Below are positions 26,701 through 32,700 of a stretch of 35,453 bases of DNA, piece by piece. The DNA lies in IMG/VR virus record IMGVR_UViG_2908567220_000004. One strand, written 5' to 3'. Positions within the stretch are counted from its first letter, which is position 1; each line of letters opens with the position of its first letter. Position numbers: made by a program. The DNA is from a virus (lineage: Duplodnaviria; Heunggongvirae; Uroviricota; Caudoviricetes).

Positions 26701-29700
26701 GGTCGTTATCCGCAGCAATGATGATTTGTGCTGAAGGAAATTTATCCCGCAGTACCTGGGCGACATATAACAGGTTCCCGGCATCAATCGCCGCCACTGT
26801 CAGCGCCTCTGGACGAATTAAATGGGCAGATAATGCCGTTGCCAGCCCTTCTGCGATTAAGATGCTCTGTGTTGTTTCTGGTGCGTTTATGGCGTGATAT
26901 GCCCCCCGCTTTGCTGAACCTGTCAGGAGTCTTTTTTCACCATGTGAGGTAATAGTCTGTGCTGCTGTTACTGCGCCGGATTTATCCACCAGCGCCAGCA
27001 ACAGAGATCCATCGGGCAACACGGGGAATGTAAAATCACCTACCCCTTTCGCAACCAGATAATCAGATTTGCCGTTTACAGCCTTTCTGCGCATGTCATC
27101 AAACTGACGGGAAAACGTATCCCGTCTTTGTTGTTCGTCCTTCTCTGCCCTTTTCAGGCGCTCCTGTTCGCGTCGCTGGCGCTCGGTTTCCAGTTGTTCC
27201 CGTTTCTGGCTGGTGGCTTCTGGTGTTTCCGTTGTCCGGTAATCAATACCCAGAACATCAGCGGCAAGAAGCGCCGCCTCTGTTGTGTCGCAGTTATTTA
27301 CGCGTTTAATTAAATCCAGCCCATCACCAGCGCCGCACTGATTACAGATGAAGCTACCGCGCCCGTTGTCATCGAACCGGAATCGATCTTTGCCCCCACA
27401 TGCAGGGCAGGGAGCATGACGGCGCGGAGAGTCAGGGACATTTATGTTCAGGCAGCCCAGCACATGAGGCCAGTTGTTTTCAGACGCACTGATAACCTGA
27501 CGGATAAGATCAATGTTTCGCATCACCGTACCCCACGTGGTCTATAGCGTTTGCGATATGGCTAACCAGCATCTGCCACTTGGTTATTCCGTAATCAGTC
27601 AGCATGCCATCATTGTTTAGCCACATATCAAATTCAGCGGTTGTCGCAAGTTTCCACTTATCGCCGTGGGCAGTCCTCATTGCTGGGTACATGAATGCGC
27701 AAATCAGATCACAAACATCTGACGGCTTCAGAGATGTAGTAATGGTGCGTCCCTCTGGCGTCTGAATTGCCATTTTCTCTTCACCAGTAGAATGAAGGTT
27801 ATGAATCCACACAGCACCAGCAATCTTTGCCACCTGCTCTCCGATTGCGGAGCTAAGCGCCATTTCTGCATTTTCACGCATGAGAACCTCCCGCTACAGT
27901 TGCGCCCATGTCATTAACCATGCTTTGCCATATCTCACGCCCGACGTCAGTCAATCCGTCCTTAGTGACGCAACGATCAAGAAGCTCGATCCCCACGGTT
28001 TCCCACTGCGGGTAGAACACTTTCATGGCTGCCAGTGTGTAGCTATCGATCAGGCTGCGAACGCCTTTTACTCCATTGACGATTTCCACACGGACGGCCT
28101 CGCCGTCCGCATCAACCATGAAATAGTCCCCGCCGCTGGTGGAGGTAATGTGGTTATACAGTGCCGACGCATACTTATTTGCCAGCGCATTCAGTCGGAA
28201 ATTTTTAGTAATCATGGTTCCATCCTCAGTGCGTCACTGGTTCCGCTGGCATGCCGTTTTCATTCAGTTCAGCTATAAAGCTGTTGTGAAGTTCAGCAAG
28301 CGTTTCACGACCAAATGGAGTCAGTGCTCCTTGTTCCACATCCATCATGGCTCTGTAGAAAATGATGGCGCGTTCTGTGCCAGACTCGATGCCAAAACGT
28401 TCTATCATCGCGCCCTCAATGTTGTTTGCCATAGCGAGGCGCTCTGCTACTGGATACAGCGGCATGGCGACGATGCCGTTGGAATAAACAGCCACTTCGG
28501 AAGGATTGCCAGTATCATCAATGATGCTGACAGTGCCGTTTTCCTCTCTCATTTCCAGCATGAATACTGTTGCGATCAGCCATCTCCACATAATGACGTT
28601 ATGCTGTGATGTGTAATCGAAATATCCCTGGTTGCCGCCATCGGCTATAGCGAGATGTATTGACATACCTTCATCTGGTTTATCGTCATAATCCCCGGCA
28701 TCCAGACGATTTACGGCATCAATATATGAGACGGCCTCAACGCGTTCTGTCATGCCATCGTTGCTGCGGTACATGATGTTTACGCCGTCAGGCGTTGCTT
28801 CTGCATGGAAAGTTAAGAAATTATTCATGTTTCGCCTCGCCTGAATGATTCTGTAACTCATATTTGCCCAACAATTCGTCTGCTTCCTGAATAGCTTCTG
28901 GTACGCCATTGAGCAGTGACATAACCGCGCCAATCATTAACTTGTCTCTGTTGCTGGGGCTGGCCCCTTCAAGCCAGAACCCTAAAACAGTCTGAACCTG
29001 TTCGATGCGACATTGTGCTTCAATGAGCTGGATGTTGGTCATTTCGCACTCTCCGCATCGATTAAACTGATATCTATCAGAGAGGTAACTTTTTGTAGCC
29101 AGCTAGTGATTACTGTCGCCTGTTCCCCTCCCACCGATGGAAGAATCTCATTCATCACATGAACCAGACCTGTGCGCGCTCTGGTAAGCCGTTCAGTCGT
29201 GCGATCTGCAAGAGTGAATGTGTCTGGATATGGCTCTTCACGGCTCAGCAATGATTCAATTTCCAGCTCACACGGATGACGATAAATTAAGTTGATATTC
29301 ATTTTTCACCACCAAGAATTACCAGCTCTGCACGAGCATCGTTAACCAAAGATGAGCACGCTTTAATCGCATCCACGACATCAGCAGCGTCCATTTCTTC
29401 AGCCGAAAGACTGACAGCAACCAGGACAGCCGCTGCTTGCTCGATTAATTGAAGTGCGGACGTAAGTCGAGGGGCATTAATTGAGTTATTCATTGGTTGC
29501 CCCCGTTTTTCCTGGCATTTCGCCACCTTCCAGCAGGAAATGAACGTCACGAACGGCGAGATCCAATATCGCGAGTAACGCCTTCAGTCTTTCGTCTCGT
29601 GAGGGAGAGTTGCTCACCAGAATGTCGTTAATCACTTCTGTCAGTGTGATGATCTGGCTTGTGCGTTCGAGGGGATCCATATGCACATCGTAGGTTTTAA

Positions 29701-32700
29701 TCATGTGCCACCTCCATGCGGATACGACCAGCAAAAAAGCAGACGTGATCGCGCACCAGAGAACGGCGAGCATCGCGTTCAGACTCGGCAGCAATATGAT
29801 GAATTTTGGCGGTAATTGTCGGGCAATCGCGGCGAACTGCGGCGATAATCCAGATAAATTGCGGTTTTTGGGTAGGGGTAGTAGCCAGCATGTGGCAGCC
29901 TCCTTGTACTGGGAATTCTTCCCACCACCGGAGCTGCGAAACTCGCTGGTGGTGGACTGAACAGAGTTCGCAGTACCGGCGTACAAGGAAACCGGCCAGC
30001 CTTTCGGCTGCCCTGTCCAGCCCACCATAATTTTGCAAGCGACGCGGATTATAACCACATCACTGAAAAAAGTGTGAGTCTGGCTAACGGCACAAAAAAA
30101 GACGCTCGGCGCGTCATGTGTCGCCTCGTACATTTCCGGGCTGCGAAACCCGGCACCCGTTTTATGAGGTGCCTTATAACCATAAACCGTGTTGCCGCAT
30201 AACGGCAAGCTCTTTTTTATGGACTCCGAAAACTCACTATTGGAAGAACCAGAAGCACAGTACATCGCGCTCATTTCGTTAACGTCACGCGCGTGGACGA
30301 ATGTTTTTGTGGAGTCACTACACGAGCGGAAGACATCATCTACGACCAGAAATTTTCTGGCGCAGCCGCTGACCTTCTCAATGCTAATATCATCGCCCGA
30401 GATTTCTGGTATGGTTAAGGCATCCGTTCCGACCACCAGCAAATGATAAACTTTGCTTGTATCTGCTGTATTAATGCCTGACTTTGCCGTCATATTTCTG
30501 GATTTTGGCGACATGCCAGCCAGTGAAAATGTCTTCTTCTGGACGGGTATCATTGGTTAACCTCCGCGAACTCCTTCATGAAACGCGCCAGCGGTTGTAC
30601 GCATGGCGATTGATACCCGTCGCGATAAAACGTCACTCGGTTGTGAGACACGCTTTCGACAGTAACGAGTGCTCCGTGGGCATCTTTGTAGCGTTTTTGT
30701 GGTTGTGGTGTTCCTGTTGGCTTAGACATTGAGCGCCTCCAGACGCTTGGCGAGCCAGCGTTGCGACAGGCGGGTGAGTTCTCCTTTGCGCTGCTCATAT
30801 TCCATGCCCATATCAATTAACGTGATATTGGTGCTTTCGAGATATGAGAGGTGCTCAAGCTGTTCTGCGTTCATATGGTCGCGAGGTTCGCCAGAATAGC
30901 CATTTATCCGCGCCCACTGCTTAGCAGTTAGCCCACCAAGAACGATACGAGAAATCATATTGCTCTCGTTTGTGTAGTGGTGTTGCTGCGTCGTTTTACC
31001 CATCTCGGCACGGGCCATATTCAGCGCATCGCACATTGGCTTAAAGTTGTTTGCGGCACTGAGACGGGCTTTTAGCTGGCGACGATAGCGGGCGGCGATT
31101 TCAGGAACGCTACGCTGTAATTCTTCCTCGCACTGGATGAAATAACGGCGGATAGCGCGACCCTGATCATTGCGTTCGATCATTGCCAGTTCTTTCGCCA
31201 TTCCGACACTTAACAGATAGTCTTTGCCGGGTCTGCCAGAGTGCTTTATCTTGCTGTAAGCCGCGCCATTCGGGCTTTTCCCCAAATTTGGGGAAATTGT
31301 TTTATGGACTGAGTAATCGTGCCCAATGGTGAAGTCATATTCAGAGATGCGATCAGTGATCCATGTAGAGAAGTCTTTTCCCACGCCCAACGCTTTGTGT
31401 AACGCTTTTGCGCTAACAATATTGGTTTCACGCCCACCGATATGACCAGGAATAACCGGGACAATTGCGGCAAATTCATTACCGTTAATTGTGCCCAGAG
31501 AGGCGTTCAGATGAGGGGCGGCCTCAGAAATTAATCTGCTTTTTTCGATGTTCATTTTCAGTCTCCGTTAGGCGGCGTTAAACGCGTTCGGGTAGAGTTT
31601 CAGAATGTCGGCAATTTCCTGCTGAGAAAGTCCGTTGTGATCATTTATGTTCGCAAGATGGTTAACATGAGTGATCACTTTCAGAACATCACCACGGCAG
31701 GAGAAACGGTAGCGAAGGTGTGTTCCGATACCATCAGGATTCTTTTCGTCGATACGCTCCAGAGTGATTCCAAGCTGGCGTTCTAACTCTGTTGCATAGT
31801 TACGACCAGAAGACAGACGGCAGTAGCGAAGAATGTCATTTTCTGTCCATCCCTCTATACCAGTACGCAGCATATAGACTCGGGCACGATGCTTTTTCGG
31901 TGTGCGCTTTGGTGCTTGAAGGGATTTTGTAAGGGGCGTAATATCAGATACGCGAATATCTGAATTAGCCGCCTGTAATGGGCGGTTTTTCTTTTCCATC
32001 AGGCCACCTCGTCTCTAGATTCTAATATACACTTCTCAATCCATTCATCTATTTCAGACTCAACAAAAGCAATTGCCCGACTTCCAATTTTTACCTGTTT
32101 AGGGAACCTCCCCTGACTAATAAGACGATAAATCCATGCTTTGCTATAACCAGTTCGCCTTTGAACTTCAGAGAGACGAATTAATGAATTGTAATTAGCC
32201 ATTTATTAATATCCTGTACTAATGACGCAATAACCCCCTCCTGCAACGAATGGCGAGAGTTTTATTTGCGTCAAATGTCGAATACGCCAAAGACCACAAT
32301 ATGAAAAACATATTGCGGTCTTTTATAAAAGATAGTCAGATTGTTTTGGTTTGTTTGCTCCACAAGGGTAGAGCTACCCTGCATTTCGGCAGGATCACGC
32401 TATTAGGCGTGACATCCAGTAGTTTTAAAGAACAATTGCGCTTTGTCAGCGCCAAAGCCTGTTAAAGAACATTCCGCTTTTCAGCAGCGTAGAAGGCTCA
32501 ATACACCTTCGTTTATAAAAGAGCGATTGCCCTTCTCCAGGGCTAACTGTTAAATAGCAATCCTCTGTGAGTTTTTATCAATCTACTCCCCTATACTTTA
32601 GTAAACCTCTGTATACTTGTCCAGTTGTTTCATGCGTGTTTTTCAAACACCATATGCACCACATTTCCGCCATGCTCGAGAGAATCCATATAGTCGGCAT

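Follow-up and report, generated by a model that had tools for sequence, protein, structure and literature searches.

Seven coupled small genes ahead of the primase in an EcCIMP1-type phage satellite: a variant of the P4 alpha operon with a remote homologue of Cnr

What do seven small genes, packed directly ahead of the primase gene of an Escherichia coli phage satellite, contribute to the element that carries them? The question is raised by the virus record IMGVR_UViG_2908567220_000004, a stretch of 35,453 nucleotides that was analyzed as a whole and is referred to here as the window. It holds an island that is a known E. coli phage satellite of the EcCIMP1 type, i.e. a phage-inducible chromosomal island (PICI), integrated at thrW. 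A preliminary description had placed seven overlapping small open reading frames (ORFs) of 64-200 aa at 27510-29704, and they are confirmed there on the minus strand, where they fill the interval with products of 72, 64, 87, 73, 200, 113 and 123 aa, in the order o1 to o7. The explanation favored here, to which about even chances may be given, is that the seven genes form the middle of an RNA-gated, P4-type alpha operon of ~5.6 kb, in which o5, o6 and o7 would be replication tuners sharing the fold of the P4 protein Cnr, and o1 to o4 would be accessory factors.

The placement of the seven genes had been likened to that of the small genes in the early operon of P4, and this likeness is borne out by an RNA pair, an Icd-like ORF and the primase, which show homology. 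At the level of sequence, homology extends between this operon and the alpha operon of P4, and the analogy of position thus reflects real homology at the operon level. With an ATG start, the primase-helicase gene, which closes the chain on the minus strand, spans 24767-27523, and with a GTG start 24767-27526 (919 aa); its product matches P4 alpha (phmmer, E 3.6e-47), contains the Pfam domains Zn_Ribbon_Prim, Toprim_3 and DUF927, and belongs to phrog_1139 (E 1.2e-177). The order of the P4 left (alpha) operon is leader, CI RNA, ORF137, epsilon, orf151, cnr (ORF106) and alpha. In both operons the coding part is preceded by one pair of Rfam RNAs, after which come an Icd-like segment, small genes, and a Cnr-type gene beside a primase-helicase with Zn-ribbon and Toprim domains. 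They differ in that P4 has a single Cnr, whereas three Cnr-like genes occur here (o6 and o7 as probable members), the first with an extra N-terminal domain and an insertion. In addition, the present operon has four further, unrelated small genes, the helicase part of its primase is DUF927, and its element is an AlpA-controlled PICI with a P22-like helper, as judged from the behavior of EcCIMP1 (PMC11773190). A link to the helper-manipulating genes of P4, which had also been proposed, was not borne out. The epsilon family PF25738, which P4 epsilon itself matches at E 9e-51, gave no match to any of o1-o7 at E values up to 1, and no similarity was found between P4 epsilon, orf151 or ORF88 and the seven-gene cassette. 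P4-like elements carry Icd, a 73-87-aa ORF, DUF5375 and the primase with 4-nt overlaps, and the comparison of their 73-87-aa gene with o1-o4 was not significant.

The operon would be opened by an RNA immunity module composed of an isrK-like leader RNA, a C4/CI-type antisense (immunity) RNA and icd, all on the minus strand. The isrK-like RNA (30095-30172; Rfam RF01394, 69 bits against a gathering score of 50) has a terminator, formed by a hairpin and a T-run, at 30101-30115, and a weak match to c4-a1b1 at 30133-30185 (22.5 bits) falls below the gathering score of that family. The C4/CI-type RNA occupies 29945-30032 (RF01695, 81.1 bits against a gathering score of 45). The icd-like gene (29697-29891) is the first translated gene of the chain and codes for 64 aa, matching NCBIfam NF033153 (E 3.7e-20) and resembling the C-terminal part of P4 ORF137 (E 8.9e-10). 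P4 itself scores 74.9 bits for the C4/CI RNA and 60.8 bits for the isrK-like RNA. The same RNA pair precedes icd and the cassette in eight related loci of other genera, namely Kluyvera, Shimwellia, Kosakonia, Enterobacter, Lonsdalea, Klebsiella, Photorhabdus and Xenorhabdus.

Nucleotides 44-52 of the C4 loop (UCCUUGUAC) form a 9-nt exact complement of GUACAAGGA, which overlaps the Shine-Dalgarno sequence of icd, while a second C4 site, CUGCGAA, is a 7-nt complement of UUCGCAG, present in the leader and in the isrK-like RNA. The loop is accordingly predicted to pair with the icd ribosome-binding site and to gate expression. In P1 immI and in P4 immunity, the genes farther down are silenced by the RNA, which either prevents icd from being translated or brings about early termination. 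The immI of P1 and P7 likewise presents a C4-family RNA followed by icd, with a loop whose sequence is the complement of the ribosome-binding region of icd and with a further target upstream. The arrangements differ in what follows icd, namely seven small genes and the primase here, whereas immI has its antirepressor at that place; the AntA/AntB antirepressor gene of the window (30722-31555, minus strand) lies upstream of the RNAs instead. By analogy with P1 and P4, the operon would be expressed only once the RNA block had been bypassed, after induction by the helper and activation by AlpA. A possible, weakly indicated constitutive promoter for the RNA leader was found by a consensus scan ~180 nt upstream of the isrK-like RNA (TTGAGA, an 18-nt spacer and GAAAAT; 30352-30381, minus strand), and promoter-like sites are overall less frequent in the region than in shuffled versions of it. 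In the E. coli elements L105-L108, the segment corresponding to isrK and C4 (29900-30190) is very different, being 56-58% identical in translation of the Ash frame described below, while the cassette DNA is 97-99% identical to the window. This divergence beside a near-identical cassette suggests exchangeable types of RNA immunity, as in the heteroimmune P1 and P7.

Downstream of icd, the minus-strand genes o1 (29486-29704; pI 4.8), o2 (29299-29493; pI 4.2), o3 (29039-29302), o4 (28821-29042), o5 (28226-28828; net charge -21), o6 (27874-28215) and o7 (27510-27881) all have acidic products, with pI values of 4.2-5.6. Stop and start codons overlap by 8 nt at icd/o1, o1/o2, o4/o5 and o6/o7, by 4 nt at o2/o3 (ATGA) and o3/o4, and by 14 or 17 nt at o7/primase, according to the primase start chosen. 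One junction is non-overlapping, because o5 and o6 are separated by a 10-nt gap; counted from o1 to the primase, six of seven junctions thus show the overlapping stop and start codons reported earlier, and with icd/o1 included seven of eight do. A purine-rich, Shine-Dalgarno-like stretch stands upstream of every start, and a pattern scan of the coding strand within 27510-29704 revealed no promoter-like or terminator-like site. Repeats within the cassette were at chance level only, including a 14-nt match of the first C4 hairpin to o2. Each gene from icd to the primase is linked to the following one through overlapping or near-abutting stop and start codons, and joint production of the primase and the seven proteins is therefore expected.

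None of the seven products had been recognizable at the outset, and with respect to curated functional families this remains so. No family match was obtained for any of o1-o7 in Pfam, NCBIfam or PADLOC (the best PADLOC hits had E values of 0.009-0.03 at 10-14 bits and were not significant), and o4, o5 and o6 fall into function-unknown families of PHROGs, which has none for the other four. Sequence searches of the PDB with all seven proteins, and with profiles for o5 and o6, produced no genuine match. The statement no longer applies to o5, for which comparison of profile with profile indicates a remote relationship to Cnr.

In P4, the gene immediately upstream of alpha is ORF106, which we take to be cnr and whose product is a DUF5375 protein (PF17345, E 2.9e-63). 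Cnr binds P4 alpha. Its gene is located between epsilon and alpha and governs the P4 plasmid's copy number (PMC8628076). Homologues of o5 number 550, all of them unnamed and from Enterobacteriaceae, with 144 representatives after clustering at 50%. DUF5375 was the sole recurrent Pfam family among 92 scanned o5 relatives, with four members and a best E value of 0.0013, all of them below the cut-off. A profile of 78 o5 sequences aligned by hhalign to P4 Cnr with 92.2% probability, and to a five-member Cnr family with 95.1% probability (E 3.1e-8, 89 columns). The alignment joins o5 residues 76-186 to Cnr residues 9-101 at ~19% identity, bypassing an insertion in o5 at ~100-121. Judged by these profiles, o5 is a remote Cnr homologue that consists of an N-terminal domain (1-75) and a Cnr/DUF5375-like domain (76-186). 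As with cnr, its gene occupies the corresponding operon, immediately or closely upstream of the primase; unlike Cnr, the protein is twice as long, fails the Pfam threshold, and has family members also in phages without an adjacent primase. The AlphaFold2 model of o5 has a mean predicted local distance difference test score (pLDDT) of 66.6. No informative domain fusions were seen among distant o5 relatives, a scan of viral contigs for Cnr relatives returned 80 loci that were nearly all exact Cnr copies, and a literature search brought up no paper mentioning DUF5375. The Enterobacter adelaidei locus L014 contains tandem o5-family genes (6438-7001 and 7001-7603), the upstream copy being 27% identical to o5.

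The two genes that follow, o6 and o7, are probably paralogues of the Cnr-like domain of o5. There are 131 homologues of o6 across Enterobacterales, and its AlphaFold2 model (pLDDT 92.9) consists of a helix, a beta-hairpin and three helices, an order of elements that recurs in residues 74-191 of the o5 model. Alignment of the o5 and o6 profiles by hhalign gave 52% probability and a score of 29.8, against a maximum of 19.0 in 30 column shuffles. Between o6 and o7, blastp found 23% identity over 97 aa, phmmer an E value of 2e-5 (in a small local database) and hhalign 35% probability over 91 columns, while the o6 hidden Markov model (HMM) matched an o7-like protein of Klebsiella aerogenes at E 2.5e-4. 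A match of o7 to polyubiquitin at E 2e-12 was rejected as an artifact of weak hits summed over repeats, a single ubiquitin giving E values of 0.2-1.5. The proteins o5, o6 and o7 would thus represent a set of paralogues built on the P4 Cnr fold, with a homology that is demonstrated in the case of o5 and probable for the other two. By analogy with the action of Cnr on alpha, they most likely bind the primase-helicase and tune initiation or copy number. The outcome that all seven genes belong to replication accessory families, which had been considered in advance, is approached for three of them, o5 as a Cnr relative and o6 and o7 probably so, and not for o1-o4.

The arrangement can be followed through 16 related loci of other species, in which a common order is kept: the 143-aa ORF, Ant, in some cases DUF4222, the two RNAs, icd, variable small ORFs, o5, sometimes o6 and o7, and the primase. 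Overlapping junctions persist in other genera whatever the gene content. The gene adjacent to the primase is o5 in six of the 16 loci and in two E. coli variants without o6 and o7; it is o6 in most other loci, and wherever o5 is not adjacent, it is parted from the primase only by o6 or by o6 and o7 together. In the window, as in an element of the Klebsiella aerogenes type, an o7-like gene adjoins the primase, and in the latter element it stands alone, without o5 or o6. A distant satellite shows an o3-like gene, an o4-like gene, an 84-aa ORF, an o5-like gene and then a large gene that is probably the primase. Outside Escherichia, o1 appears in none of the 16 loci and o2 in one, and three further small families found in the related loci are absent from the window.

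The seven small ORFs are real genes, with o1 as the weakest case. All seven exact proteins are present in a public protein collection, each on at least 1000 contigs, where none bears a name beyond 'hypothetical' or 'prophage protein', apart from a mislabel of o3. Among eight E. coli alleles, the ratio of nonsynonymous to synonymous polymorphism (pN/pS), a rough indication derived from summed pairwise counts over few alleles, was 0.29 for o1, 0.22 for o2, 0.54 for o3, 0.14 for o5, 0.15 for o6 and 0.27 for o7; o4 showed no nonsynonymous changes against four synonymous ones. The wrong frames of o1-o3 gave ratios of 0.77-2.99 (1.15 and 2.99 for o1) and contain stops. Homologues of o3, o4, o5 and o6 at 38-79% identity occupy the matching operon position in other genera, and those of o7 are 56-70% identical. 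The single homologue of o2 outside Escherichia, in the Enterobacter locus L014, is 62% identical over 52 aa. For its part, o1 was found only in Escherichia, at 95% DNA identity or more, and in one allele its frame is cut short by a stop at codon 62.

In annotations by the Prokaryotic Genome Annotation Pipeline (PGAP), o1 is either passed over or taken for the C-terminal end of an 'ash family protein', an ORF of 355 aa (29486-30553, minus strand), which begins in an ATGA overlap with the stop of the DUF4222 gene, spans the isrK-like and C4 RNA genes, crosses icd in another frame and ends as o1. In Pfam, residues 124-232 of this ORF match Phage_ASH (E 1.6e-28), and the match coincides exactly with the two RNA genes; the P4 'cI ORF137' matches Phage_ASH too. 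Since the match lies on RNA genes, the calls of an 'Ash family protein' at this locus cover RNA genes. The 355-aa ORF as one real protein was rejected, as stop codons lie across the icd segment in other genera; with the frame interrupted there, no conserved protein corresponds to it, and the best reading of o1 is as a gene in its own right. Translation through the leader is relevant to immunity bypass in the case of the P4 kil/eta genes, and by analogy it might matter for bypassing immunity here.

The four genes at the head of the cassette, whose content changes from genus to genus, are, as far as their sequences allow, unrelated small acidic families for which no relatives are known. No match to o1 or o2 was found in Pfam, NCBIfam, PHROGs, PADLOC or the PDB, and o2 is narrowly distributed, in Escherichia and one Enterobacter locus. 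By comparison, o3 is a semi-core cassette gene of the satellite family: full-length homologues (55-59% identity) occur in nine loci beyond the near-identical Escherichia locus L003, among 16 related loci, and further homologues are present in L116 and L110. Its occasional database name, 'nicotinic acetylcholine receptor subunit beta', is a misnomer. A hhalign probability of 80% joins o3 to a 92-aa variant family, the only link detected when paralogy was sought among o1-o4 and the three further cassette families, and o3 has no phage or PDB match. The o4 protein belongs to phrog_20558 (E 2.9e-9); its homologues, at 38-43% identity, occur in about half of the related loci, and a match is also present in the distant satellite L110 (E 1.2e-23). 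Searches of phage records by tblastn returned no match for o3, o4 or o7. Putatively, o1-o4 most likely serve as protein-binding accessory factors directed at helper or host targets.

Several E. coli chromosomes match the window at 100% identity over the operon region, and that of strain ABU 83972 does so nearly; part of the region is matched in 928 of 5,426 complete genomes, and most of it in 253. The 10-bp attachment (att) core known from EcCIMP1, TCCTATTATC, occurs as direct repeats in exactly two copies, at 15296 and 34017 (chance expectation 0.04). These cores bound 15296-34026, with an island of ~18.7 kb between them. A tRNA-Thr gene at 34010-34085 stands beside proA at the right end of the window, which stops short of yagU, and the insertion site of EcCIMP1 is the tRNA-Thr gene between proA and yagU (PMC11773190). 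In strain MP1, the source of EcCIMP1, the RefSeq protein accessions of o2-o7 and Icd are the same as here. The two islands are thus alike in integration site, att core, gene order and identical o2-o7 proteins; they differ in size, the MP1 island measuring 19,963 bp against ~18.7 kb, and in the far end. EcCIMP1 is experimentally a PICI, induced and transferred by the P22-like helper phage Kapi1, with alpA as its helper-induced master regulator (PMC11773190). Pick, Stadel and Raivio (2025) left the genes from the 'Ash family protein' to the primase as hypothetical, and their paper and supplements contain no mention of roles for o1-o7 or of the RNA module (PMC11773190). EcCIMP1 also makes an unexplained contribution to the superinfection immunity of Kapi1 lysogens, in which no known defense system was detected, while the Kapi1 titer and the activity of a CI reporter are unaffected by the island (PMC11773190).

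A number of observations weigh against the assignment of o5-o7 to primase control. Homologues of o5 (30-37% identity, near full length) occur in 36 true phage records, and in phiP27, Klebsiella phage P18-100, EKP1 and CharmingMan the o5-like gene belongs to the early-left operon and is flanked by the repressor on one side and xis/int on the other, with small unnamed neighbors and no primase near it in these four inspected phages; o6 homologues are found in like operons of EKP1, phi467 and a Yersinia prophage. Since relatives of o5 and o6 thus occur in phages without an adjacent primase, a function that is not tied to a P4-type primase is favored on this count. Moreover, o5 itself has no match to DUF5375 at E values up to 10, and the scores of its relatives, those from Xenorhabdus and Photorhabdus, do not exceed about 12 bits, where the gathering score is 30. 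The models of o5 and o6 match no solved or viral structure specifically, profile comparisons gave no direct similarity of o6 or o7 to Cnr, and the tie of these two proteins to o5 is carried by hhalign probabilities of 35-52%. Both are dispensable, since two E. coli elements lack them, and in strain 83972 an internal stop makes o6 a pseudogene (L001 20475-20816). The scheme of regulation, too, is inferred from sequence and from the precedents of P1 and P4. Such observations may be accommodated if o5, o6 and perhaps o7 are general early-left accessory proteins of temperate phages, active in host take-over, exclusion or anti-defense, which the satellite has borrowed and which do not act on the primase, so that adjacency to the primase and resemblance to Cnr reflect shared ancestry and not shared function. 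The extra N-terminal domain of o5 and its net charge of -21, neither of them present in P4 Cnr, are consistent with this proposal. Yet every satellite examined, the distant elements included, has a member of the o5/o6/o7 group against the primase, usually coupled to it, and P4 Cnr, the only characterized relative, is a copy-number regulator (PMC8628076). Borrowing is thus considered possible, at clearly less than an even chance.

It may also be proposed that most of the seven are helper-manipulating or anti-defense effectors, acting by derepression, interference or inhibition of host defenses. Their position is equivalent to that of P4 epsilon and orf151, all seven proteins are small and acidic, the content of o1-o4 shifts between genera as sets of accessory effectors often do, and the superinfection immunity associated with EcCIMP1 was observed without a known defense system being detected (PMC11773190). 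However, neither PF25738, PADLOC nor any Pfam family is matched, o5 maps to Cnr, the island carries a separate AntA/AntB antirepressor upstream, and it leaves Kapi1 titer and the CI reporter unchanged (PMC11773190), and the proposal is on balance rather unlikely. A narrower version, that o1-o4 or the phage-shared pair of o5 and o6 underlie the EcCIMP1 superinfection immunity, or include a new small effector directed at helper or host under C4 gating, could hold and is rated as unlikely. Helper derepression, interference or anti-defense by o1-o4, as originally suggested, is possible, and nothing in this analysis supports it. Finally, the short ORFs, above all o1 and o2, might matter only as a translated relay from icd to the primase that protects against polarity, their products being functionless. 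The tight coupling at every junction, the very narrow distribution of o1 and o2, the premature stop tolerated in one o1 allele and the free exchange of cassette content between genera would suit such a relay. The low pN/pS of 0.2-0.3, confined to the correct frames, in contrast indicates selection on the amino-acid sequence, and since fewer ORFs lie between icd and o5 in other genera, a relay of this length is not needed; the relay must be regarded as very improbable.

Under the favored reading, that of a P4-type alpha operon, a recently described and widespread family of E. coli PICIs would share the regulatory and replicative logic of P4, comprising an immunity gate formed by RNA, icd, small genes that are coupled, a Cnr-like protein and a primase. 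Three of seven 'hypothetical' genes thereby gain a candidate role in replication control. The unexplained part is made up of o1-o4, which are obvious candidates for the effects of the island on helper or host, superinfection immunity included. The 'Ash family protein' call made by both Pfam and PGAP over two RNA genes constitutes an annotation problem. The finding is modest, as the element is already published and the operon is a variant of a known operon type.

Upstream of the RNA genes and on the strand of the operon lie the genes for an AlpA-like regulator (31999-32202, minus strand), the 143-aa ORF (31568-31999, minus strand), and, beyond the antirepressor gene, DUF4222 (30550-30726, minus strand). 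The Rfam int-alpA RNA (RF02996) is present between int and alpA in five related loci (L004, L007, L010, L014 and L018), and none was found at the gathering threshold in the int-alpA spacer of the window (32203-32629). Downstream of the primase, at 19347-24005 on the minus strand, annotation of the identical region gives P22-like DNA ejection genes and a DUF2824 gene, which were noted in EcCIMP1 as possibly related to packaging or to the helper (PMC11773190). The PGAP annotation of the identical island in 83972 and MP1, consulted without an HMM search, lists no psu, sid or delta. The vat island, which neighbors EcCIMP1 in 83972 and MP1, is not at the corresponding position in the window. Instead, positions 1-15305 hold a lambdoid prophage or remnant adjoining the island, in which the gene for a 387-aa integrase (14112-15275, plus strand) lies directly against the att core at the distal end (15296). 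This region also codes for DUF2303, HTH_36 replication-type, KilA-N, DUF968 and antiterminator Q proteins, and includes a DDE transposase (1761-2741) and a cspA thermoregulator RNA (1206-1645).

Two records attributed to Flavobacteriia, EKP1 (L103) and a contig of Chryseobacterium sp. 18061 (L011), carry o5 and o6 of the enterobacterial type at 59-65% identity, and L011 carries the entire satellite operon; the attribution looks like a case of misattributed hosts or contamination. Just 3' of the primase stop, at 24709-24741, three tandem ACCAACTGA-like repeats spaced by 9 bp represent a candidate iteron or origin site.

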